Origin: Candidatus Zixiibacteriota bacterium
Lineage (GTDB): Bacteria; Zixibacteria; MSB-5A5; GN15; JAAZOE01
DNA: 15,247 nt
Direction: 5' to 3'
NCBI GenBank assembly: GCA_043819555.1
Contig: JBDREQ010000058.1
Coordinates: 1-15,247 of the forward strand
The stretch's first letter is position 1. The number at the start of each line of letters is the position of its first letter. The notes below the pieces were generated by a model, which worked only from the letters and a program-made list of their open reading frames with translations, ran no database searches and had not been told where the DNA came from. Made by a program: the position numbers and the translations under genes. Of this stretch, positions 1 to 15,247 are shown one piece after another.

Positions 1-3000
1 GCAAGCGGGATCACCTACAATTTCCAGAACACCAGTTGGTTTCTCACGGTCGAGAATTATACTGGCGGAACCATTGGCTTCATTTCCAGCCCGATCCATT
101 ACCCTGACATGTACTGTTCGCGTACCATCGCCAACGGCGAAGGTATGCGTTTCGGTACCAGTGTATGTCTGATAGACAGTGTTACCCTTGGCGGGATCGC
201 CAAAAGTATCATCTTCGGAAATCATAATCTTCCAGACACCACAGGTTTCGGTAAGAGTCAAATCAACCGGATTGGTAAGGAATCTAGTCTTGGCATCGCC
301 GTTACGAATCTCGACGAGATCAATAACAGGAGCTTCGGTATCGACTTTTATCCTGTCCCAAACCTGAGCGGAAACCACATCGGAGCAGTTCTTGCCTTCG
401 ATATGGACATATGTCCAGCCGCACTCGGTAGTTCCGGTCATATCAGCTGTATGAGTACCCGGATCGAAATCAATCCAGGCCACAGCGCTGAGATCCATTG
501 CAGCCGAGCTATTGGACACACCCATGCGAACATGAGTAATGTTGCTGGTAGCGCCGGCCAGAGCGAGGTTAGCTGTTAAGTCGTTAGTCCAGCCATCGCC
601 GCCATTAATTGTTAATGCGCCAACGCTGGTCGCACCCCACATACCGGTGATACTAGCATCAGCTTCATCGCTGACATTACCAACGTTATCTTTGACGGTG
701 GTAAATACTGTGTATAGATCACCGGGGGAACCACCACTTGTCCAGAGGTGAGTTCCTTCATAATAGGAGATACCTGCATCTACGTAATCAGGTGCACCTA
801 ATAGAACATAGCTACCAGCTCCGGTAGCATCACCCATTTTAAAGCGATTAGGATCGCCAGTAACACCCAGCAGGTAATCCACATTCCAGGTGACAGAGAA
901 TGCGCAATCTGCCGCCGGATCATTGTCAGCATCCATAATCACAAAGGATTCAATCACAGGCTGCGTTTTATCAAGAGTTACGATATCCGATTCAATTGCG
1001 GACACATTTCCAGCATCATCGCGAACGGCAAAGAAGACCTCATAGGGGCCATCCGGTGCAGAAGCGCCCAAATCAACCGGGAACGGATAGGAATTACCAA
1101 TCGGCCAATAGCAGGCTTGCCAATCCGCGCCGTCGCATGTTAAGGCCGCACCGCCGTCGTTAATCGAATAGGCGTACATTGTAGCTCCATAGTTACCCCA
1201 GTTTTCGACCTTACCATTTACGGTTGTATTACTGGTCAGAGTTGGAACATCAAAGGAGTACAGGGAATTATCCGGAGCGCTGGTATTGTATTCAATACTA
1301 TTGCTGCCCCAGCCGCTCTTGTTGCCATAAACGTCAGTAACCTGAACATACAGTGTATGCACAATATCACCCGGGTAGGTGACATTATCAAGATCGACGT
1401 CGAATGAAGCCACATATGCCTGAATCAGCCGAAAATCGCTGGCATAAGCCCATTGAACTTGACCCATGTCGTTCGGATCGGCGCTGTAATCGGTCGTAAC
1501 ATCGATAGTTACGCCGACGACATGCGTCCAGCCGTCTTCGGCGCATTCCTGCGAAGCAAGATCAAACGCCGGAGTCGCCGGACCGGTATTGTCAACCGAG
1601 AAAGCCAGGTCAAGAGTAGTATGGCCGCCATAGCCATTGCAATCATAAAGAAGCAGATTCAATGTATGATCGCCTGTGCCAAGGCCGAGAGCGCTGATAT
1701 CAAAGACGTGTGAACCGGTAAAGGATAAAACGCCAGCTCCACCCGGAGAGGCGATGTTAACCCATGAGCCAGCACCATCTATTTTATAGTAGAGCCCCAG
1801 CAGACAATAATCGTCAGCTAGTTCAAAATCGAGAGTCATATCAAAAGCGTCTGAATAAACATCATCGAACGTAGGTGAACCGCTGAGACCGGTGCTGACA
1901 AACTCTGGCGGCAGCTGATCGGAAACCGAAAACGCCATCGCCGGAGACATGGTTGGAATCGGATTGTTGTTCAAATCCTTATAGGATGAAGCAACAGTTA
2001 TGCTTCCCGAACCAACAGCGTCAGCTTTAGCTTCAAACGTAACGGTAACCAAAGTTCCCGAGGACGTCTGGGCTTCGGAATCACCACTACCAATATCTAT
2101 AGAAATTGAGCCCGCTGTGGAATTGTCATATACAAACGCAACCGGTTCCGGTAAGTAGTCGCCTTTTACTATCGAGACAACATCCAGAAGAGCGTCATCA
2201 TAGCTAATGACAAAATCGGCAGCTTTAAGCGCCGGGAACGGATCGCAAGTAGTGGCATCGTAAACGAAATCCACAACCATTGTCTCACCCAGCGCCAGAT
2301 CATCATTATCCGGAGTCGGTGTATTGGTCGCCATGACAGCGTAGTACCCCATATTGGCGCCGATCGGGAATGGATTGGCGCTTGTAGCATTATCTGAATA
2401 AAAGTTACCCAGTCCGCTACCCGTATACCAGAGGACCTGATATGGAGGCAAATACGCATTAACGTCCATAGCCGAGACGCCATTATTGTTCAAGCAGTTG
2501 CTGTAAATCGAAACAACTGTCGAACCAGCGCCATAAAGATGAGCGACATCAATACCAACGGCATTAAACTGGACATCGTTATCATGGAAGATACCCTGAG
2601 CGCCGGAAACACCGGCACGTAACAGGATACCTGCACCAACGGAAACATCAATATCGTTTCCGGAGACATCGTAGCCGGTTCCGGTACCCAAATTGATACC
2701 ATTACCGCCACTGTTCGAAACGATATTGCCAGTTACCATTCCGCCACCATCAACATCAATACCATCACCGGTACTTCCATCGACTGTATTATTGGTGACC
2801 GAAAGGGCGCCTACGACCATGATACCATCACCGGCGCTACCGGAAACCTCGTTGAGGTCTACAGTACAAGTACCAGTGACGTCAATACCATTAGCCGTGC
2901 TTCCAGAAACGGCATTACCGGAGATATCACCACTGCCAGTAACCGAGATGCCTTCACCAACGGTATTACCGGTGATTGCAAAACCAGTGCCACTGGCAAC

Positions 3001-3687
3001 CGATATGCCACCGGTGCCAACGGTGACACCATTGACTACCGAATTAGTGCTGACACCGATAAAGCCAAATCCCATAGCTTCGCCGCCGTCAAAGGAATTC
3101 ATATCCATGGCTGTACCAAGCGTGTTGTCAAATACAACACTGCCACCGGCCACACAATCGGTAAACATATTATTGTTAGCCGTAGTAAATGTGCCGTTAG
3201 TAAAGATACTAATTCCAGCAGACGCGGTGAGATTGGTGAAAACACCATCATTTACGTTCATCGACATGGCCATGAGATTGTCATCAAAGACAATATCATC
3301 CGCTGTCAGATTTGTAACACCGGTGCCACCAAAACCAGTAGCATATGCCATTATTGTCATTCCTGATATGATGATCCCATCGGTACCGCTTAGATCAAAG
3401 CCAGTACCTGTCTGATACGTTCCGGTAATTAATTGAACGCCTGCAGAGCTTTGTCCAAGGATTAAGAGATCATTATCAGATGCAACACAGGTTTCCGCAT
3501 ATACACCGTCATCAATATGAACGGTATCACCGTCGATACAATCATTGAGAGCAGCCTGGATTGTGACGTATTCGCCAAATCCGGCGCCCGGTCCGACAAC
3601 GTGACGCGCTGTCGCAAAGACCTGACCGGCGGTGAAAAGGCATATCAGAAAACCCAAAAGAAATAGTTTCTTTGTCATTGTCATCAT
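1..3687 (-). CDS. Large secreted/surface protein, 3'-truncated (>1229 aa): signal peptide, right-handed parallel beta-helix (~2400-3600), cohesin-like domain (~1925-2340), tandem Ig-like repeats (1-1920)
   Basis: Manual translation gives an uninterrupted frame from ATG at 3687 (alternatives 3684, 3678; GGAAGG RBS just upstream) to the window edge. N-terminus MMTMTKKLFLLGFLICLFTAGQVFA resembles a signal peptide. 'YVTIQAALNDCIDGDTVHIDDGVYAE' and GN-x-V-S/GIDV repeats are typical of beta-helix proteins. 'AADFVISYDDALLDVVSIVKGDYL...GTLVTVTFEAK' is cohesin-like. VxDxxGNxS motifs recur about every 100-110 aa. Absent from the ORF track because there is no stop in the window. Confidence 0.92.
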   Translation of the reverse strand, partial: MMTMTKKLFLLGFLICLFTAGQVFATARHVVGPGAGFGEYVTIQAALNDCIDGDTVHIDDGVYAETCVASDNDLLILGQSSAGVQLITGTYQTGTGFDLSGTDGIIISGMTIMAYATGFGGTGVTNLTADDIVFDDNLMAMSMNVNDGVFTNLTASAGISIFTNGTFTTANNNMFTDCVAGGSVVFDNTLGTAMDMNSFDGGEAMGFGFIGVSTNSVVNGVTVGTGGISVASGTGFAITGNTVGEGISVTGSGDISGNAVSGSTANGIDVTGTCTVDLNEVSGSAGDGIMVVGALSVTNNTVDGSTGDGIDVDGGGMVTGNIVSNSGGNGINLGTGTGYDVSGNDIDVSVGAGILLRAGVSGAQGIFHDNDVQFNAVGIDVAHLYGAGSTVVSIYSNCLNNNGVSAMDVNAYLPPYQVLWYTGSGLGNFYSDNATSANPFPIGANMGYYAVMATNTPTPDNDDLALGETMVVDFVYDATTCDPFPALKAADFVISYDDALLDVVSIVKGDYLPEPVAFVYDNSTAGSISIDIGSGDSEAQTSSGTLVTVTFEAKADAVGSGSITVASSYKDLNNNPIPTMSPAMAFSVSDQLPPEFVSTGLSGSPTFDDVYSDAFDMTLDFELADDYCLLGLYYKIDGAGSWVNIASPGGAGVLSFTGSHVFDISALGLGTGDHTLNLLLYDCNGYGGHTTLDLAFSVDNTGPATPAFDLASQECAEDGWTHVVGVTIDVTTDYSADPNDMGQVQWAYASDFRLIQAYVASFDVDLDNVTYPGDIVHTLYVQVTDVYGNKSGWGSNSIEYNTSAPDNSLYSFDVPTLTSNTTVNGKVENWGNYGATMYAYSINDGGAALTCDGADWQACYWPIGNSYPFPVDLGASAPDGPYEVFFAVRDDAGNVSAIESDIVTLDKTQPVIESFVIMDADNDPAADCAFSVTWNVDYLLGVTGDPNRFKMGDATGAGSYVLLGAPDYVDAGISYYEGTHLWTSGGSPGDLYTVFTTVKDNVGNVSDEADASITGMWGATSVGALTINGGDGWTNDLTANLALAGATSNITHVRMGVSNSSAAMDLSAVAWIDFDPGTHTADMTGTTECGWTYVHIEGKNCSDVVSAQVWDRIKVDTEAPVIDLVEIRNGDAKTRFLTNPVDLTLTETCGVWKIMISEDDTFGDPAKGNTVYQTYTGTETHTFAVGDGTRTVHVRVMDRAGNEANGSASIILDREKPTGVLEIVGDPAC

Positions 3688-4377: not shown

Positions 4378-4905
4378 CTATTGGGATGCGGTTATGGTGA
4401 GGCAAATGTCAATCGCATGCCCGCAAGATGGCGGCTTATTGGCCTTAATAAAGAACATCGCATTTTGAGATAAAAATACTTCCATAATTAATTCAGGATT
4501 GTTTTCAGGATCCCATATAAATTCCCGGCCGTCGAGATTAAGTGTTAATTCCCGCGCCGGTTTATCCTTATCAATTAATACCGCGAATTCCAGATCATAG
4601 ATTCCCTCAGGATTGCGAAACATCCAGACAATATCCTTTCGGACCGATGATATCCGTCCGCATATTATTTGAGATTGGCCCGCCCCGGATTCAATGATTG
4701 TTATCGTATCGATTAATGTAATGGTATCGATTTGGGTTAAAGTATCGATCACAACCAGGGTATCAACGCTGAACAAGGTATCTATATTGGGAACCGGATC
4801 GGCCCCGGTCACATCATCACTTTCAAGAGGATTGGAGCAATTTACGAAAATTACGCTGCCAACTAATAATAAAGCCCAAACGGCACAGATAATAAGCTTT
4901 TTCAC
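4378..4905 (-). CDS. Putative lipoprotein with five hexapeptide DT(L/I) repeats, function unknown (175 aa)
   Basis: Basic N-terminus, hydrophobic stretch and lipobox-like FVNC(23)SNP; IDTLFS-VDTLVV-IDTLTQ-IDTITL-IDTITI repeats; GTG start overlaps the upstream gene's TGA (GTGA). Confidence 0.82.
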   Translation of the reverse strand: MKKLIICAVWALLLVGSVIFVNCSNPLESDDVTGADPVPNIDTLFSVDTLVVIDTLTQIDTITLIDTITIIESGAGQSQIICGRISSVRKDIVWMFRNPEGIYDLEFAVLIDKDKPARELTLNLDGREFIWDPENNPELIMEVFLSQNAMFFIKANKPPSCGHAIDICLTITASQ

Positions 4906-5858
4906 TTTTCGCCTCCGAATGTTATGTGAGCCGTTATGGATAACAAAAACCGGTCCTTTTTCGTCTCGGATTTTGATTCTCCGGCAATAAGTTGCTTCGA
5001 CGGATTATAAGCGCCGGTAATTGAAATAAAATCATAAGGTGACACCCTCAATCCAAGCAATGGACCTTCAGACAATTTGGCATATTTGTAATACTTTTGA
5101 GAAATTTCCTCAATGCGAATCCACCCCCCGACGATGCCAACAAGTATGCGTTCACTTGGATAATAAATAATTTGACCGCCTATTAACCGTCGCCTTGTAT
5201 CCAGGTCAATTCCTTCAAATTCAAAAGAGCTTTTCCAGAATGAATGGCCGGCAAAGCCTTCGGCATATAGAGTATTTTTCCACGAAATGGCCCCGGTCGC
5301 GATTGGTATCCCCCCAAACGGCGATGTCGATAGTCCTACACCGAATTGAAGTCCCAGACTTTCCTTATATTCACTGGTGATTTCCTTGACTTCGGTAAAA
5401 TGCTTCTCCACGGGCGGCTTATCTTCCAGCGCTTTTACGCGTTTATTCAACTCGGAGAACTCGTTTATAACACGAACCGCGGCAAATCGGTACCTCCCGC
5501 CCATTTCCTTTGTATCCCCCGATTGAATAATAATTTGCGAGGAATCAATCTTAAACTCATTGATTAAGAGATTGCGGAGGACATGCGCCCGTCCGAGCGC
5601 CAGTCCCGGATTTTTGGCGTCATTGTCCTGCCTATATCTTTCGCCGTCAGCGCCCCCGGTTACTATTGCCCGGGCCAGCGGATATTTATGAAGCGTATCT
5701 TTTATCGCCTGCAATTCGCCAAAATAGGGAGCGAATAATTCTGGACTTACATCGCTGCCTACCCCGATCGGAAAATTGGTTATTATTACTTCCTGGGACG
5801 TAGCGATGGACGCCAGCAATAACAGAATCCCCGCTATTATAATGGTCAGATTCTTCAT
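4902..5858 (-). CDS. Outer-membrane protein: N-terminal OmpA-like peptidoglycan-binding domain, short coiled-coil linker, C-terminal beta-barrel (318 aa)
   Basis: Signal peptide; 'IVTGGADG...DAKNPGLALGRAHVLRNLL...YRFAAV' matches the OmpA_C G-x-x-D / N-x-x-L-x-x-x-R-A / R pattern; C-terminal half has alternating amphipathic strands (LGLQFGVGLS, LIGGQIIYYP, GPLLGLRVSP, FLLSITAHITF). Confidence 0.78.
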   Translation of the reverse strand: MKNLTIIIAGILLLLASIATSQEVIITNFPIGVGSDVSPELFAPYFGELQAIKDTLHKYPLARAIVTGGADGERYRQDNDAKNPGLALGRAHVLRNLLINEFKIDSSQIIIQSGDTKEMGGRYRFAAVRVINEFSELNKRVKALEDKPPVEKHFTEVKEITSEYKESLGLQFGVGLSTSPFGGIPIATGAISWKNTLYAEGFAGHSFWKSSFEFEGIDLDTRRRLIGGQIIYYPSERILVGIVGGWIRIEEISQKYYKYAKLSEGPLLGLRVSPYDFISITGAYNPSKQLIAGESKSETKKDRFLLSITAHITFGGEK

Positions 5859-6383: not shown

Positions 6384-9300
6384 TCACTTCATCAGTATCA
6401 TCTTTTTGGTATCTGAGTATATACCAGCTTCTAATCTGTAAAAATATATTCCAGAGGCAGCCGGGCGGCCAAAGCTGTCTTTACCGTCCCAAACGACTGA
6501 GTGCAAACCGGCTTCCAAATGAGCATTAATGAGACTTGTTATCCGTTGCCCCATAATATTGAAGATATCCAGTTTAACATCCACTGCATCGGGCAGCGCA
6601 AAGCTAATCTCCGTGGACGGGTTGAAGGGATTTGGGTAGTTTTGGCTGAGTGAGAACTCGGTTGGAAGCTGCTCCGCGTCATTCTGCTTGTAGGCGATAT
6701 TGGCGGTAGTGGGATCGAGCATGCCTGCCGGGACTATCTGTCCTTCGTTGATCATCTCCGCAATATCCTTGGCAGCCTCGTCGTTGTCCGCATTGCCGTC
6801 ACTGATCAGAATATTACAATAGGTAATGGCCTGTGAGACGGTGAGGGAATCCTCACTGATCGGATGCCACTGAGCGATCTTTCCGGAAACCATGTTTAGC
6901 AAAAGGGCAGTAAGATGGGCCCGAGCTTTCTCGTTCATTGTTGCTTTCCCTTTAGGAGAAATCGTAGCTCGTAGGGCTTCAAGCCGTTGATTGCAATCAT
7001 CTGTCAAAATAACTTCGAATACATTTACCGGATTCAGTCCATGCTGATTGAAATGAGCACGTATAAGCTCCATGTAATCGCACATATCCTCGTAGGTTTC
7101 ATGCGGATTTCCCTTGTCCGACAACAGTGCGTTTACTTGGTGCATCCAGTAGCCGCGTCCGCGTTGATGTGGTATGATATCGAGTGGTGTTAGAATGAAA
7201 ATGCACATTTCATTCAAACCCATAACTGCTATCTGTTGAGACTCTTCATCTGAATTATAGCCCAGAGGTGTTACCATAGCCACCACATATTCTCCGTTTT
7301 CCAAAGCCCCAAAATCGTAGTCTCCGTCGTTATTCGTGATTGCGGTTGCTATTAAGTTACCTAGTGAATCGTATAGGTCAACCGCAACGCCAATAAGTCC
7401 GACTCCTGAACTGGAAACTGTACCGGAAAGTGTTCCGTGAGTCAGCATCATCTCAACGTTTGTTTGCCAACTCCAGTCTGTTGCAGATAAGCTGCACTCA
7501 AAAATGCCATCAGCATCAAAGTCCACTAGCGCTGTTGTGTTTCGTATTTCTCGGCCTAATTTTATCTCAGCCTGTGATGACGGTGTAATTGGTATTCTAT
7601 ACGTAACTAGATCAAGCGTATTATCGGCATTATAGATTGAAATCATCACAAATGCAGAATCGAATCCTTTTCCGTAAATATTCAATGAATAGTCAGACGC
7701 AACTGGCAAATCAAATAGCCACGACTCATTTTTGTGGTCAAGATAGGCACCCTGTATTTCATCATATTCATTACCATTAAGTTCTCCTATTCTTCCCCCC
7801 ATATCATCAAGTATTACTACATCAACCGGACACCTTACGGATACTTTATGCATTTTCTTTTCCATGTAATCAGTGAGCACTCGCTGTGATATTGCCAGGA
7901 CTTCAGAAAAATGTCTCGACATGCCCGGCGTGCCTTCATAGTCCAAGAAGTCAAACCAGTCGTATGGCCTTACAGGGTTTATCCCCCCAACTATCCATGT
8001 GTCGTCATCTTGGGGAAGAGCTATGGTTGCGGTAGGGGTGGATGGGTTAATATTGTCGTAGGAAATCACAGAGAACTCTTCATCAATATTGCGGATCATT
8101 CCTGTCGGGACAATACTATGACCAAATCCAGAAGAGCTGTAAGAAAGAATAGGAGGTTCGTCATCTTCCAAGAACCACTTCAATCGAAGGCTCTTGGATT
8201 GTGGAGTTTCCCGCATTGCGTCTGGTCTTGAAAGGATTGATTTTATATTGAAAATCGTATGATGTTCGCTGATATCTTCCTGCAATTGAATGTTAGCGCT
8301 GGACCAAGAGAATACATCGCCGGGTAAGGGTTTTGAGGACTCATCTAAATAGTATTCAGAGCTAGATGCCGCCATACCTGAACAAAGTCCGAACTGGGTA
8401 TTCTGTTCTTCCACAACCTCACTACCTATTAAGTAGACATATAAATCCCGCAAGTTCTCGTAGATGTCAACGAGCACAGTAGCTATTTCCCAGAGTCCCT
8501 TACTGGTTATAAGTTCTGTAAGCTCAGTATTGGTGAAAGAGAAATTATCGCGTCCAAATTGAAATCCAGAGAAGTAAACATTGCAGGTTGCACTTGATGA
8601 CTCATTCATGGCATCCTTGACAATTAGTTTTGGAGTGATGTGTCGCTTGGACTGGCTGTCTCCATAATCAAAATGGATTAGTTGATTCTCATAATTCTGG
8701 ATCTGGTCAGGTGTGAAGCTGTCATCAATTATGCCATCTCCATTATAATCCATCTCATACAACACAATGTTATTGTCAGGATCTGTACTGTTTGTTAGCT
8801 TAAAAGAAACCTTGTAGAAATTGGAGTGTCCTCCAGTAAAGCGACCACGTAGTATTGCCACTGGAGGGCTGTTGGTACTTGATCCAGAATAACTCAAAAT
8901 GCTAAGTCCGCTGGCACCATCAGCCAAATAGACATAATCACCAACAACCTGGATACCCCAGTGCGGGTCTCCTCCGGTGGCATATTCGTCAAGCAATGTG
9001 GGGTTTGTTTTGTCGGAAATGTCTACAACCTAAAGGCCGTAGCTTCTCTCTCCAAGAAATGCCATGTTTCCTGAAATCGCAATACCCCAGGGATCACCAT
9101 GCGTTGGAAAGCCACTACCCAAACGCACCGGATCAGAGGGGTTCGAGACATCTACAACATTAAATGAGAATCCACTGTGGTAAACGTAATTGCCTGACGC
9201 GGTGATTTCATGTACAGAGTTGCTGCCGGACAGCGAAGCGACCTTGGTCTGAGTTAATGGTGATGAAATGTCAAAAATGTCTATTCCGTACGGTGAATGT

Positions 9301-10436
9301 TCTATCCCGACATAGAGGTAATTACCGGATACTGCCAGTGACGTTGCCCAGGCTGACGCTGAATAGGAAGTTATATAGACTGGACTGGCGGGATCAGAAA
9401 TGTCATACACCCGTACACCACCTGCTCTGTTAGCGAGGAATGCATATCCATTCGCAAAAACAAAATCCTTCGCCACGTCAGGAGGGTGATAAGACGGGCC
9501 CACTTTCGTCGGTGAAGAGGGATCAGAAATGTCGATCACTTCAAAACCCGAGAGATTCTCACCCAAATAAGCGTAATTACCTATAAGAGAAACGTTATAA
9601 ATGTACGGCACTCCTGGGTTATAAGTTCCCAACAGCAGTGGATTGGCCGGATCGGAAATATCCAATGTGTAGAATTCGGTAAATGAATTCACATACGCGA
9701 TGTTTCCTCTTACCTTGAGATCATATGCTGGTTTGTCAGTGTATTCCCCAACCAGTGTTATTTGGTCAGGATTTGGTGATCCGCCCTCTTCAATATATAA
9801 ATCCGGCCAACTGGCAATATCGCAGTAGTCAGCCGAGGGATACATATAGCCCACACCTCCCGGGCTGAACATAAAGTGAATGCCGACAGTCTCTCCCGGT
9901 GATACAGTCATATCCGAAAGAGGTATCTTGAACTCATAACTGATTTCACCAGTTCCAGAGAAGGCGTGCTCTGCGCCCGAGGGGGGCGTTACGGCGTCAC
10001 TCTGGACGACTCCGCAGGGTGGCCTTTCTGCCCAATATGCATTATATATTGAGTATAGCGGACTATTTGTACCTGCCTTGTTGTAGCCCAAGTCGGTGTG
10101 TGGCTCGGACATTATGCCGTTGAAAGAATGTGAGTGATCACCGTCGATGTAGATACCAAAGTACGCCGTTGGTGCAGACGGAAACGGTACCGTGGATGCG
10201 CAATATAGGAATGTTCCGTCGTTTAGCAAGTAAACGGGTGCGTCTACCGTGGTTTGATCGACGTTGCTGTGAAATGTCAGGTTGTAGGTCTGAGCGTCTT
10301 GCCATTCAGTGCCACCGATCACGCCGTCAATGGTTGGTGGTGTGTCGCTGACAGGAGCTGTTAGATTTGTTTGCCCCCACAGGCTTGATGAAATAATCAT
10401 CAACCCAATGGAAATGATTAGAAAAGTTCTTTTCAC
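6384..10436 (-). CDS. Multidomain secreted protein (~1350 aa if joined), interrupted by one in-frame TAG at 9030-9032: signal peptide, CBM9/DOMON-like domain, LVIVD-repeat propeller, PKD-like domain, putative papain-like Cys peptidase, SdrD-B/carboxypeptidase-regulatory-like domain, GYW helical domain, C-terminal FlgD-Ig/T9SS type A sorting domain
   Basis: ORFs 9030..10436 and 6384..8996 share a frame; the junction reads ERSYGL*VVDISDKTNPTLLDEYATGG, a continuous LVIVD repeat. GGAGG RBS at 10441-10445 precedes the GTG start. C-terminus LPTEFSLSQNYPNPFNPSTEISF...SGIYFYRLEAG...KKMILMK. Could be a pseudogene or a base-call error. Confidence 0.85.
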
Positions 10437-10571
10437 AATTCCTCCAATCCTTTGTTTTTTTTAATTAATTCTATGTATTTGGTTGTCTATTTAGTAATAG
10501 TCACGATAGCAGGCATATGTAGAATAAATATTAATTTTTTATCTTATTTTTTGAGGAAAAAATTTGTAAGT

Positions 10572-12902
10572 CTATTCTTCTGCCCGCAATTGGCCTCCGG
10601 TAACCCAACCAAAATCAGTCCAGTAAATAACGGCGTTCATGAGACCTGTTAGATATTCCGACCAATTTTCGATTGGTGGCAATTTGCCCTCGGCTACTAA
10701 TTCCTTGCGGCGGGTATTGAGAAAATCATTAAAGTAAACGTTAATAACTCGTAAATCATGATTTAAAGTGTAAATTATTTCCGCCTGGAATCCATGTTTT
10801 ACTGACTCACTGATATAGATTTTTATATTTCCGTTCTCTGAAATCTGAATTCCATGCGGTCCCGGCTGATTATAGCCCATGGGAAGTTCATTTTCCAATT
10901 GACCAATATCTGTTGTGGGGAAGACTATATACGCAAGTTGGTTCCCATGAGTATACCATCCGGAATCGACTATAGGGCAATCCTTATATGGCGAAAAGCC
11001 GAATGCTGAATCTTTATCCAAAATCAGCAATGCAGTACCTTCCATACTGTTATTGAAACATAAGAAAAACAGTTCGGGATTATTATTATCTCCGTTAATA
11101 TCCATAGCTTTTTGAAAAGTCCCATGACCCCAATTGATAAACCAACCAAGGGAATCACCTTTTCTATCCCAAATGCGTATGTGAGACCGCGCCGGCATTT
11201 CCTGACCAACTATAGATATTATTAGTTGTTCTTGATAATCATTGACCGTTGCGAAATACACAGGATCAAAAATAGTTCCTAGCGTGTCCCTGGGATATTT
11301 GTCAAGAACGGCAGCGTTCCTTTTAAACAATAATTGACCATCTTGCGAATAAAACCTGATCCGGGTTCTATCATCACATATATCATCAATTCTAGGGAGG
11401 AAGACAACTTCGTTTAACCCGTCATCATTCATATCAATTATTTGTCCAAAACTGGTGCTAAAGGGAAAATCGCTAGTATTTTCAGACATTTTGCATAATA
11501 GTGTATCCGACCATAACAATATGGAATCTCGATTGTAAGCGTCAAGGGTATTGGTCTGAGGATTAGCTTGAGCGAATGCGGGATTTTTATCAAACCACGG
11601 ATCGAAATATCTAGGCCAGAAAATTGCGGCGAGAATCCAAACCAAGGCAAACAATAGCGGCACTTGAATCCTGGCGGCGCGGGAATATTTGATTGCCTTT
11701 TTAGTCACATACTCCCCGATGCAAACTTTTTCATCCCTTAGAATATTGCGGTTTTCGATGGCGTCGCTGAACTTATTGAGCCCGATTATAATTAGATTGC
11801 GGCGAGGATATTTCTGATTCAGCTTTTTCAGATAATTATTGGCTTCGATATAATTTATTTCAGGCAAAACCAGGTACTTGACCGGAGAGAAAAAGGCTCG
11901 TTCGATTTTATACTTAAGCGAATCATCGTTTACTTTTGAAATTCGGCCCGACTTATCAATCCCCCCGGTACAGGTTATCTCCGCCGAAAGAAAACGGTCA
12001 ACTCTGGAAATATCAGGACGCATCAATTGTGTATAAGCCAAAAGCCCCGCCGCCAATCCAATCGAATCTCCGGTAAACGTCTGCCCACTATCCTGAATCG
12101 CGAAATGAGCATGATAAAACGAAGTTGATTCGGTTTTGTAATTCAGATTTTTGAAAATGTCTCGCACAGCCTTAAGGGCATCATACGACGCCCCGACAAA
12201 AGGATCATCCGGCGTTTTGATTTGATTATCGAACGTGATCTCATCGGTTGTGGCATTTTAGTCAAAACATTCCACCGAGCCTTTCAGAATCCTCATCCGA
12301 CCCCTGAGCGGCTGACCGTGGCCGGTCTTCTCGACAAATAAACAGTACACTCGGTCATAATAATAAGCGTCTCTGACCGATTCCCATTCATCGTGAATTT
12401 TAGATAAAAGTCGGATTAAACCCGGATTCGAATCTCGATAATAATTACAAACTGTATTAAACGCCGAATATGCATCCTGATCGTCCAATAATCCGTCGGG
12501 GATTGATATTGCATCATCCCCAATTATCGCTCCGCATAATTTTAACCCCTCGTCAATATCGCCAACAAAGAAATACAGAGACGCCAATTTCATGAAGAAA
12601 AGATTTATCGAGTAAGATACATGCTCATCGGTTCGAAAACGTCCGATATCAATCAGGGTTTCGATAATGTATTTTAATTCATCGACTTTAAAATCATTCA
12701 GATTTTTGCTATTTAGCACTAAATCCAAATAGGCATAGTACTCTTCAAAATAACTTTGATAACTGCGGTCGGTGACTTTTTCCTTAATGTGAGACCAGAA
12801 ATCCATCAGGCTAAGAAGCTGCAAGTCCTCCGCCGGAATTTTTGAGAATTCGGATTTAAATTTCTCAAATTCCTGTGCGAATTGTAATGGGGCCGCGCTC
12901 AT
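10572..12902 (-). CDS. Membrane-anchored Lon-type (peptidase S16) Ser-Lys protease (~776 aa if joined), interrupted by one in-frame TAA at 12258-12260: helical N-terminal domain, Lon_C domain, one TM helix, extracytoplasmic FG-GAP/VCBS-like domain; no AAA+ ATPase
   Basis: ORFs 12258..12902 and 10572..12167 share a frame (VECFD*NATTDEITFDNQIKTPDDPFVGASYDALKAVRDIF). Lon motifs: YHAHF, TGDSIGLA (Ser codon 12063-12065), TGGIDKSGRISKV, LKYKIERA (Lys codon 11907-11909), LVLPEIN. TM segment IQVPLLFALVWILAAIFW. DMNDDGLNEVV and DINGDNNNPEL Ca-loop motifs. ATG overlaps the upstream TAA (TAATG). Confidence 0.82.
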
Positions 12903-13756
12903 TATTGAAACAGCCTTATATTTATAGGGGTCGCGGGATCCGCGATATCAAAAGTCACCGCTTCATGAGGGCCGGCGCTAATAATTTTTGCCGCCTTGCC
13001 CTGAGATACCACTACTTTGATTGTATCAAAATCAGCCGAACCGTCAAGTTCAAGAATCTGGAGAGTAATTTGCTTTCCAACGGTTTTGCCCTGCAAGGTT
13101 ATCTGAATTTTATCATGTTTTTCGGTTTCAAGAACTGTCGTTTCCTGATATTTCACCTTCTCCGGATCATAAACAAGCGGTTCCAAATTAAAAATTGCGT
13201 CAGGCATTTTGATCTGCCATTTGAGCTTTTCTATATTTTCAAGAGGCTCGCCCTCAATGCTGGCATGTCCGGATTCATCGGTTGCAAATTCGCGCCCGAT
13301 TTCCGGCAATTGAATCATCACATGCGACACCAGATTGGCATCTTCACTAATAAGCTGTAGATAATCCTGTTTTTGTCTGGAATCATGCATAATTCGAAGG
13401 ATAACTTCCGGGTCGCGGGAAAATAAAGTCGCCAGGTTTTTTGTTTGCTCCCGTTTTATTTCACTACCATCCGCAGCCAGCTGATAAACTGGGTCGATTT
13501 TGACGCCCTCAAGCAATTCGAGAGGAATGATATTCGTATTGATTGATTGCCCAAAAAGTCGGCCGGCCAGCTTGCCTGCCTCCGGCGGGAGTTTTTCGGA
13601 CATGGATAATTTCATTGATTGTGAAAGCAACGCGTAATCTTTACAGAATTCACTGCAAAATTCGCATTGGGAAAGATGCCTTGAAACTAAATCATTATCC
13701 GTATCTCCCGGCCGCCCTTCGACATACGATTTTAGTATTTCTTTATTCGGATGCAT
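12902..13756 (-). CDS. zf-HC2 (ZAS) anti-sigma factor-like protein with a soluble beta-rich C-terminal region (284 aa)
   Basis: H2...YVEG...H27-LSQ-C31-EF-C34 zinc motif (HxxxCxxC) at the N-terminus; no TM segment; AAGGA RBS; directly downstream of the sigma-like gene. Confidence 0.82.
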   Translation of the reverse strand: MHPNKEILKSYVEGRPGDTDNDLVSRHLSQCEFCSEFCKDYALLSQSMKLSMSEKLPPEAGKLAGRLFGQSINTNIIPLELLEGVKIDPVYQLAADGSEIKREQTKNLATLFSRDPEVILRIMHDSRQKQDYLQLISEDANLVSHVMIQLPEIGREFATDESGHASIEGEPLENIEKLKWQIKMPDAIFNLEPLVYDPEKVKYQETTVLETEKHDKIQITLQGKTVGKQITLQILELDGSADFDTIKVVVSQGKAAKIISAGPHEAVTFDIADPATPINIRLFQ

Positions 13757-13796
13757 TTAAATTCCTTTTTTTGCCTTTCCATTATATTAATAGCCT

Positions 13797-14849
13797 CTAT
13801 TTCTGACGATTATAGGATTTTTTTAATCTCCTCAGGAACTCTTCTTCAGCTTTTTGAATTACCGTCTCAAAAATGTATTTATATTTTGACAAGTACCTTT
13901 CGTGTTCTTTTGGGGGCATAACTTCACGAAAATACCGGGGCAATAAATCTGCCGGAGGAGAAAAAGCAAAATCTGACAGATATAGCTGAACAGCCCATTC
14001 AAAATGGGCTGCGTTTTGTACCGTTAAGGAGTTCTTCTTAATGAACTTCACAAGTATATTCTCTCGAATCCAGGGTAAGACTCCTTTTATAGTCTGTTCT
14101 GCCTCTCGAAATAGCATATCATTTTTTGCATTTTGAGAACAGTACGATTGAATATTTTCCACTTCAACATATTTGATATTGACGGCAATCATCGAACTTA
14201 CCAGTTCGTGCTTATTGATGATTTTTTGATATTTTTTGGATTTATACAATGCCTCAAATATACTTCTGCACCATTCGACTCTATTGTGGTTTTTGAGATA
14301 TGATTCTTCAACTATTCTTAAAATTTCCTCATACGGAATAATTTGTAAATCAGTGCATATTCGATCTCTATTTTTCGACAGAAAAATCTGATTGATTCCG
14401 CTCAGATTTGACGTTAATGTGGTATACTCATCGCGTTTCAGTATTTCATTAATCCTGCGCTTGAGATTGGCTTTCTGGGGGTCGGTTTCATTTTTTAGCT
14501 TACTTAACTCCTGTCTTATAAAACCGAACAATAGTGCTTTGAATCTTTCGTATAATTCAGCAGCATCCGCATTTTTAAAATTAGTAATTCCGATTTGCCG
14601 GAAAAAATCAAAGATCAAATAAAACGGTCTGTCTTTTGTGCTTCGCAGGAAGGAATTTAATATATCCAGAGTAAGATCAACTAATTGATTTCCATCGATG
14701 TTTGATGCGACAGGTAAATTATAGCCTTTTTTCTGCAAAAACCGTAAATATCCTATGGTCGACCGATAGCAGAATTCGAAGAAGGCATTAAACTTCTTGC
14801 GAGATTGACAATCAGTTAAAAAATGTTGAATTAAATCCCCGTTTTGCAT
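13797..14849 (-). CDS. Divergent sigma-70/ECF-like protein with a large central insertion (350 aa)
   Basis: Region-2-like 'FNAFFEFCYRSTIGYL...LVDLTLDILNSFL...FKALLFGFIRQELSKL'; region-4-like basic C-terminal helix 'FETVIQKAEEEFLRRLKK'; sits just upstream of a ZAS gene. The CDS is secure; the sigma assignment is an inference. Confidence 0.6.
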   Translation of the reverse strand: MQNGDLIQHFLTDCQSRKKFNAFFEFCYRSTIGYLRFLQKKGYNLPVASNIDGNQLVDLTLDILNSFLRSTKDRPFYLIFDFFRQIGITNFKNADAAELYERFKALLFGFIRQELSKLKNETDPQKANLKRRINEILKRDEYTTLTSNLSGINQIFLSKNRDRICTDLQIIPYEEILRIVEESYLKNHNRVEWCRSIFEALYKSKKYQKIINKHELVSSMIAVNIKYVEVENIQSYCSQNAKNDMLFREAEQTIKGVLPWIRENILVKFIKKNSLTVQNAAHFEWAVQLYLSDFAFSPPADLLPRYFREVMPPKEHERYLSKYKYIFETVIQKAEEEFLRRLKKSYNRQK

Positions 14850-14929: not shown

Positions 14930-14965
14930 AGAAATATTTTTATCGAAAGCAATGGTTTTAAAAAA

Positions 14966-14988
14966 TAGCGGAGCAGGGACTTGAACCT
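14966..14988 (-). other. tRNA 3'-end-like fragment (T-arm plus acceptor strand, tRNA-Met-like); not a complete tRNA
   Basis: Minus strand AGGTTCAAGTCCCTGCTCCGCTA; no matching 5' acceptor strand, D-arm or anticodon arm upstream. Confidence 0.4.
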
Positions 14989-15106
14989 TTGTTACAGGTG
15001 CCAATTAATATTAAAATCCTCTCACCTGCTAAATATCGGAAAAAATCAGCCTGAGCCCAAACTCACACACACAACCCTGATTTTCGTTAAAGTAAGTAAT
15101 AAATAT

Positions 15107-15138
15107 AACAAAGGGCCGGAATAATTCCGGCCCCTGTT
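15107..15138 (-). terminator. Intrinsic terminator after the dockerin gene
   Basis: GGGCCGGAA-3 nt-TTCCGGCCC stem (15113-15133) followed by TTTGTTATATTT on the minus strand, ~25 nt after the stop. Confidence 0.8.
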
Positions 15139-15160
15139 CTATTTCATATCAGCTCGATTT

Positions 15161-15247
15161 CTAAGGACAATTCACACCTTCGCATGGATTCGGGCCACCT
15201 TTAAAAACATAGTTGATGATAAAAACAGCATCGCCAATATCGGTCGA
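15161..15247 (-). CDS. C-terminal end of a dockerin type I domain-containing protein (5'-truncated)
   Basis: Translation STDIGDAVFIINYVFKGGPNPCEGVNCP* matches the second dockerin repeat (DxxDxxxLINYxFxGGP); TAG stop followed by a terminator. Confidence 0.85.
   Translation of the reverse strand, partial: STDIGDAVFIINYVFKGGPNPCEGVNCP

Follow-up and report, generated by a model that had tools for sequence, protein, structure and literature searches.

A candidate switch in Candidatus Zixiibacteriota: a receptor-protease controlling a divergent sigma-like factor

How might a signal at the cell envelope reach a transcription factor held in the cytoplasm by a soluble anti-sigma protein? The question is raised by three genes on a 15,247-nucleotide stretch of Candidatus Zixiibacteriota DNA (JBDREQ010000058.1, assembly GCA_043819555.1), which is the entire contig C58 of the source genome G000 and is called the window below. 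The genes encode a sigma-like protein, a soluble ZAS protein of the anti-sigma type and a membrane receptor with a Lon protease domain. An earlier note on this DNA proposed that protease, anti-sigma and sigma are wired here to an envelope sensor; our analysis supports this interpretation, and no testable result overturned it. We consider the whole chain set out below likely: a receptor that is itself a protease switches on a divergent sigma-like factor, whose regulon is local and consists of one gene. The layout described in that note was borne out by the sequence: the three genes are co-oriented on the minus strand, with a 40-bp gap between the first two and a TAATG overlap at 12902 joining the second to the third.

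13797..14849, minus strand: sigma-like protein, 350 amino acids, with a sigma-2-like helical domain (about 1-122), an alpha/beta insert (about 124-234) and a C-terminal helical domain in the sigma-4 position (about 241-349)
12902..13756, minus strand: soluble ZAS (zf-HC2) anti-sigma-type protein, 284 amino acids, with a zinc domain and helix (1-75), a linker and a C-terminal beta-sandwich region (99-284)
13472..13480, minus strand: Leu-Ala-Ala linker motif (residues 93-95) of the ZAS protein, with a putative cut after Ala95 that would expose a ClpX-type C-terminal degron
10572..12902, minus strand: receptor-protease frame, 776 codons, broken in G000, with an N-terminal helical domain (1-180), an ATPase-less Lon domain (184-392), a transmembrane helix (410-428) and an outer beta-propeller (435-776)
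12258..12260, minus strand: in-frame TAA at codon 215, within the Lon fold; homologues read through this position as one frame

The neighbourhood search suggested in the earlier note showed that the three genes keep company. Among 61 related genomes, 24 carry the receptor; all of these also have the sigma-like gene, as does G052, whose operon is cut short by the contig end. Anchored on the receptor, 42 loci with at least 2.1 kb of upstream sequence (two loci wrongly merged by de-duplication were left out) comprised 38 with the order sigma-ZAS-receptor (36 scored and 2 by eye), one with the ZAS gene only and three with a lone receptor. Anchored on the sigma-like gene, 40 loci picked from 108 places (8 being repeats of earlier loci) had the ZAS gene next in 40/40 and the receptor in 39/40, three of these in pieces. 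The cytoplasmic core falls into two clades (support 100/100); the range outside the phylum was judged from record labels (one Abyssobacteria-labelled record) and Atlas taxa. We conclude that this is a real, conserved signalling cassette, apparently undescribed.

The receptor frame, read with X at its stop codon, retrieved 100 proteins among the matches listed, most of them 710-900 amino acids long and covering 85-100% of the frame; those with a named source were mostly labelled Zixibacteria. The homologues are single frames of 710-930 amino acids. The serine of the GDS motif (codon 280, 12063-12065) and Lys332 (11907-11909) are both present in the G000 frame, and the Ser280-Lys332 dyad was found in 90/90 sequences and in 17/17 of an alignment drawn largely from the second clade, the lysine aligning with that of archaeal Lon. 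A model of the intact homologue P0006 (59% identical; pLDDT 91.6, pTM 0.58) displayed a helical N-terminal domain, a Lon domain, a single transmembrane helix and a beta-propeller. Its Lon fold was recognised at Z 21.0 (root-mean-square deviation (rmsd) 2.3, 177 aligned residues; Foldseek E 1.9e-8) and at Z 12.5 against CalpL, while the outer domain matched propellers at Z 11-13.6. The Lon_C assignment expected in the earlier note therefore holds as a fold, the Pfam Lon_C score being weak and limited to 6 of 28 members. No AAA+ module was found, the N-terminal 180 residues being all-helical in the P0006 model and the 28 members giving no AAA Pfam match. The only hydrophobic segment lies at about residues 410-428 (Kyte-Doolittle (KD) score 2.08) with basic residues on its N-terminal side, and the C-terminal ~340 residues carry DxDxDG loops and were modelled as the propeller. 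Because basic residues precede the transmembrane helix, the protease probably faces the cytoplasm and the propeller the outside. No longer fused forms of the Lon-transmembrane region occurred among 1026 candidates, a finding of little weight. The intact GDS-Ser and Lys motifs, the lack of AAA+, the single transmembrane helix and the ~340-residue outer domain with calcium loops were thus all described correctly in the earlier note, whose architecture omitted the ~180-residue N-terminal helical domain shared by all full-length homologues.

The protein encoded just upstream carries the zinc motif H..HxxxCxxC (H/C-x(~24)-HxxxCxxC) and no transmembrane segment (best KD window 0.85). H27, C31 and C34 are invariant in 22 members, zf-HC2 matched 12 of the 22, and the closest solved structures were RsiW, the 3hug anti-sigma and DdvA (E 0.0065-0.073), in agreement with the soluble zf-HC2 protein claimed before. 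Its C-terminal region (99-284), which was not folded alone, matched only unnamed clusters at TM > 0.5. Between the two parts, Ala94 and Ala95 are invariant in the 22 members, which come from both clades. Across 66 members, A95 was found in 66/66, A94 in 63/66 and L, M or I at position 93 in 66/66, with a few distant members (L172, L181) deviating from [LMI]AA; positions 88-92 are variable, no residue there exceeding 16/66. The G000 linker reads QLAA, then DG, at the predicted cut. According to bioRxiv 10.1101/2024.05.08.593097, CalpL cuts CalpT between LAA and A, exposing a QLAA degron, and RseA carries a VAA degron. ClpX and ClpP are encoded in G000, and its tmRNA tag ends in MAA. From the conservation of the linker and the precedent of CalpT and RseA, we infer that the ZAS protein would be cut after Ala95 and its fragment removed by ClpXP.

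Alternatively, the Lon domain could be active while the ZAS protein is not the switch substrate: LAA would serve for docking or inhibition, and redox change or zinc loss would release the ZAS protein, or the receptor would cleave itself or cut another protein. Oxidative stress is the usual trigger for soluble ZAS proteins according to review PMC8999054, cleavage is here a prediction, and receptor genes also occur apart from the sigma-ZAS pair. However, the di-Ala is invariant in an otherwise variable linker, directly after the sigma-binding part; it corresponds to the site at which CalpT is cut, again by a Lon domain without ATPase, as described in that preprint; the ZAS and receptor genes are translationally coupled; and the lone-receptor genomes G019 and G051 hold sigma-ZAS elsewhere. 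We regard this alternative as decidedly improbable and retain proteolysis of the ZAS protein as the proposed switching step.

What such a cut would release is the 350-residue protein. Its family has no name and is large, with 1338 clusters at 50% identity (E <= 0.001), and 86 of the 201 phylum genomes carry it. Its model was confident (pLDDT 93.8). In a wide structural search, all nine rows confined to residues 1-122 were sigma factors (Z 5.6-7.1), namely ShbA (Z 7.1, rmsd 3.0, 86 aligned residues), pro-sigmaK, SigI6, SigW, AlgU, SigC, BldN, CnrH and SigK. Prediction of a complex between this protein and ZAS residues 1-97, the model called for in the earlier note, gave a score of 0.78 against 0.10 for the best control; the mark for this score is reached by 116 of 157 solved pairs and 2 of 215 mismatched pairs, and the runs agreed in at least 74% of contacts with a partner pLDDT of at least 66. 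Binding is predicted between residues 14-76 and 184-190 of the 350-residue protein and residues 31-73 of the ZAS protein, the helix after CxxC lying on 14-76, within the sigma-2-like domain. This packing resembles that of known anti-sigma-domain complexes.

The 350-residue protein could instead be a DNA-binding activator that is no sigma factor, held by the ZAS protein as an anti-activator, which binds the motif described below and recruits the housekeeping holoenzyme, the protease step being unchanged. Its lack of sequence similarity to sigma factors speaks for an activator and weighs against a sigma factor: no sigma family was found among 22 members with Pfam or 144 with NCBIfam, nor any Sigma70_r2/r4 signature, and HHalign against 11 extracytoplasmic function (ECF) sigma factors gave a probability of 0.6%. 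Foldseek returned no match at E <= 0.001, the weak top matches being MukF and gyrase (E 0.013 and above). Every sigma-2 Z-score is below 8, and unrelated helical bundles reach Z 7.7 on the C-terminal domain. The protein has an extra alpha/beta domain; a sigma-4 fold was not recognised in the C-terminal domain as compared within the whole model, and whole-sigma alignments covered 1-350 at an rmsd of 15-19 A only. Against the activator stand the exclusively sigma-factor matches of residues 1-122 and the predicted docking of the ZAS helix on this very domain. The sigma-like identity read in the earlier note is accordingly upheld in part: the sigma-2 matches, although weak, and the genetic context favor it, and neither sequence similarity nor a recognisable sigma-4 fold does. 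From structure and context, we take the protein to be a putative sigma factor.

If so, it should have a promoter. A private bipartite motif, TCTACA-N17-CTAT, lies directly after the receptor gene and ahead of a gene for a variable secreted protein:

10496..10527, minus strand: private bipartite promoter-like site, TTCTACA (10524-10518), 17 nt, CTATT (10500-10496)
6384..10436, minus strand: predicted output gene for a secreted protein of 1350 codons, with a signal-like N-terminus, LVIVD repeats, SdrD_B and FlgD_ig/Por_Secre_tail; in-frame TAG at 9030-9032

De novo counts of dyads downstream of the receptor stop codon reached 17, compared with at most 8 in shuffles. In a set of 43 loci, from which one frameshifted locus had been dropped, CA-N17-CTA was present in 37 (shuffle mean 5.5, maximum 10), and other spacings gave 1-9; a spacing of 18 was rejected (5/43). 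The motif was recovered in 20 of 27 held-out loci (8 repeats, 4 loci with unusable ends and 1 without receptor having been set aside), and 8 second-clade metagenome loci, one of them shared with the held-out set, contained a perfect TCTGCA site in 4 and near variants in 4. When G000 (3.35 Mb) was scanned with a matrix of 16 sites from other genomes, the window's own site being excluded, that site, lying 91 nt ahead of the output gene, ranked first with a score of 21.4. Since shifted spacers also yielded matches above 20 (0-2), it is the position and not the score that carries weight. The -35 part differs between the clades, with A in 16/20 H-clade sites and G in 10/10 C-clade sites, and with ACA in 14/17 (H clade) and GCA in 3/3 (strict C clade) of the held-out sites; a column-wise covariation scan did not separate recognition from clade.

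A housekeeping sigma-70 promoter was rejected because the tRNA promoters of G000 are of the TTGACA type (score <=5.9) and conservation is lacking at the sixth -10 position. A wide regulon was likewise rejected: across 61 genomes the exact pattern matched 11 times (6 at the cassette, 5 outside it) and the reversed control 6 times, which puts the pattern at background level away from the cassette. For the activator, it may be said that the motif halves, CTAC...CTAT, lie about two turns apart; the motif is, however, asymmetric with a fixed 17-nt spacer, and its C-clade halves are not repeats. Taken with the structural matches, this makes an activator rather improbable, and we return to a sigma-like factor that would use the conserved motif as its promoter.

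The co-oriented gene behind the site differs between close relatives, and so does the sensor. The G000 receptor and that of G001, which holds an intact homologue at C24:193018-197255, are 87% identical in the Lon domain and 35% in the ectodomain, identity falling from 76-94% over residues 151-400 to 28-42% over 451-750. Conversely, compared with L024 of the other clade, identity is 25% in the Lon domain and 51% in the ectodomain, rising from 8-28% to 42-65% across the same ranges, and the downstream gene of L024 is the best match to the G000 output gene (58% over 303 amino acids). The same identity break was seen between L034 and L036, and a mild drop only between L038 and L040. Alignment of these cassettes thus indicates that lineages swap sensor plus output gene, with the breakpoint at the transmembrane segment, and keep the cytoplasmic core. 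The site between them reads TCTACA in G000 and TCTGCA in L024, suggesting from this one pair that it tracks the core and not the flanking sensor-output module.

These observations fit the following chain. At rest, the soluble ZAS protein would hold the 350-residue factor, its helix after CxxC being packed on the sigma-2-like domain in the predicted complex. Binding of a ligand to the receptor's outer propeller would switch on the ATP-independent Lon Ser-Lys domain on the cytoplasmic side of this single-pass protein; clustering is the probable means, given that oligomerisation activates CalpL. Cleavage of the ZAS protein behind L-A-A95 would follow, ClpXP would remove the N-terminal piece with its terminal LAA, and the freed factor would direct RNA polymerase to TCTACA-N17-CTAT, from which one large secreted protein would be transcribed.

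Several further results weigh against this chain. Some loci are split, with a lone receptor at L037, L048 and L076 and sigma-ZAS only at L110 (G019:C32), L111 (G051:C6) and L145. The complex score may stem from likeness to solved anti-sigma-domain-sigma complexes. The strict motif is missing in 7 of the 27 held-out loci, near variants being present in three of them, and the link between the -35 part and clade, which is confounded by shared ancestry, has exceptions (L023, L066, L163, L165, L173). The finding of FlgD_ig, Por_Secre_tail or dockerin in 25 of 31 downstream proteins scanned favors a secreted output, but it is a raw count with no background rate for genes of these genomes. Many ECFs autoregulate; in contrast, a search for the motif upstream of the sigma-like gene found no autoregulatory site. 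As for the split loci, the lone receptor of L037 keeps a promoter-like site after its stop codon despite having no adjoining sigma-ZAS pair, which suggests action in trans.

Is the G000 copy itself functional? The earlier note implied an intact third gene, which was not borne out: the TAA at codon 215 lies just beyond the opening two strands of the Lon domain and leaves open reading frames of 214 and 531 amino acids. Since the homologues are single full-length frames, the family is one protein and the G000 copy is split. The output gene is also one frame with a single in-frame TAG, located within an LVIVD repeat. Among 176 orthologue-like matches to a same-genus contig, 5 contained stops, namely the receptor gene and 4 that we read as shadow frames or 5' extensions, and one more probable nonsense case was found among 93 other places. 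Because nonsense codons are rare elsewhere and two adjacent genes are affected, local decay is a better explanation than noise, and the G000 cassette is probably a decaying pseudogene. The alternative for this copy, a functional locus whose TAA and TAG stem from misassembly or undergo readthrough, draws on the remainder of both frames being open, on the intact dyad, LAA and promoter-like site, and on the fact that G000 is an assembly, the stops being seen in assembled sequence alone; given the rarity of nonsense codons elsewhere and the different stop codons in the two genes, we consider it unlikely. A tRNA-Sec gene is present in G000 (C25 38574-38668) and explains neither the TAA nor the TAG stop.

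The surroundings of the cassette contain one further feature:

14959..14987, minus strand: att-like scar upstream of the cassette, 29 bp identical to the tRNA-Met(CAT) 3' end, the tRNA itself lying on contig C78

In G001, a complete tRNA-Met lies ~4.2 kb upstream of the same cassette, and L026, L039 and L041 have tRNA genes within ~1 kb upstream of it. No plasmid match for the locus was found. On the minus strand of the window, positions 15067-15096 hold a 22-29-bp intergenic stretch with two further copies on contig C42 of G000, and 15111-15247 hold a gene tail, ending in a repeat that we take to be dockerin-like, followed by a strong terminator-like hairpin. The output gene is followed by genes for an OmpA-like protein of 318 amino acids and a lipoprotein-like protein of 175 amino acids (4378-5858, minus strand) and by a large secreted-type gene (1-3687, minus strand), in the same order as in G001.

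Could the cassette belong to a known system? According to bioRxiv 10.1101/2024.05.08.593097 and.593092, CalpL-CalpT-CalpS likewise combines an ATPase-less Lon Ser-Lys domain, a soluble anti-sigma factor, an LAA motif with a C-terminal degron and sigma release, the cut in our cassette being predicted. However, CalpLTS has SAVED, cA4 and CRISPR where the cassette has a transmembrane helix and an outer propeller, and its anti-sigma factor has a MazF fold (DUF2080) where the cassette has a ZAS protein; the cassette factor, with 350 residues, is not a recognisable ECF, and its putative private promoter and predicted secreted output are unlike CalpLTS. No SAVED or Cas family was found among the window proteins by family scan, confirming the absence of SAVED and CRISPR from the window claimed earlier. 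Envelope signalling through RseA/sigmaE and RsiW/sigmaW proceeds by regulated intramembrane proteolysis (RIP), with an anti-sigma domain, ClpXP, a membrane-spanning anti-sigma factor and two separate proteases. Envelope signal, anti-sigma domain, Ala-Ala degron and ClpXP are common to RIP and, as proposed, to the cassette, whose ZAS protein is soluble and for which one receptor-protease is proposed; the contrast with DegS/RseP drawn in the earlier note thus holds for the soluble anti-sigma. BlaR1-BlaI also has a membrane receptor with a cytoplasm-facing protease that directly cuts a soluble transcription regulator, but according to PMC9834060 BlaR1 is an M56 zinc metalloprotease with a penicillin-binding sensor acting on a DNA-binding repressor, whereas the cassette has Lon on one transmembrane helix, a propeller and an anti-sigma protein. 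A protease serving as the receptor therefore fits the architecture and, with BlaR1-BlaI, is not without precedent. DdvA-DdvS of Myxococcus xanthus, as presented in PMC11506125, shares a ZAS domain (the weak structural match above), a protease-fold partner domain and a sigma partner; DdvA differs in that it sits in the membrane itself, carries a TPR-CHAT domain on the periplasmic side and has an incomplete active site. The cassette is thus a member of neither CalpLTS, BlaR1-BlaI nor RIP, and its factor fails the ECF sequence test. No description of this architecture was found in the literature accessible outside subscription papers, and the main text of PMC7826278 contains no whole-word 'Lon' or 'Zixibacteria', although its supplements may list such contexts.

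On balance, we lean towards a new class of transmembrane signalling, in which swappable single-pass Lon-fold receptor-proteases would make one cut in a soluble ZAS protein to free a new, profile-invisible, sigma-70-like family that would have one additional domain and an altered sigma-4. Every cassette would express a single interchangeable secreted protein from a promoter of its own, and the system may be a non-immune relative of CRISPR CalpLTS. The predictions are exact and cheaply testable: the catalytic serine, the cut between Ala95 and Asp96, the promoter sequence and the target gene. The natural sensor swaps at the transmembrane helix, together with the putative private promoter, suggest a modular receptor-to-transcription chassis for biosensors. 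If the proposed chain is true, it would provide a route for signals across the membrane to sigma release beyond the three soluble anti-sigma mechanisms given in review PMC8999054, and Pfam-based censuses would have overlooked a large sigma-like family that occurs in 86 of the 201 phylum genomes.

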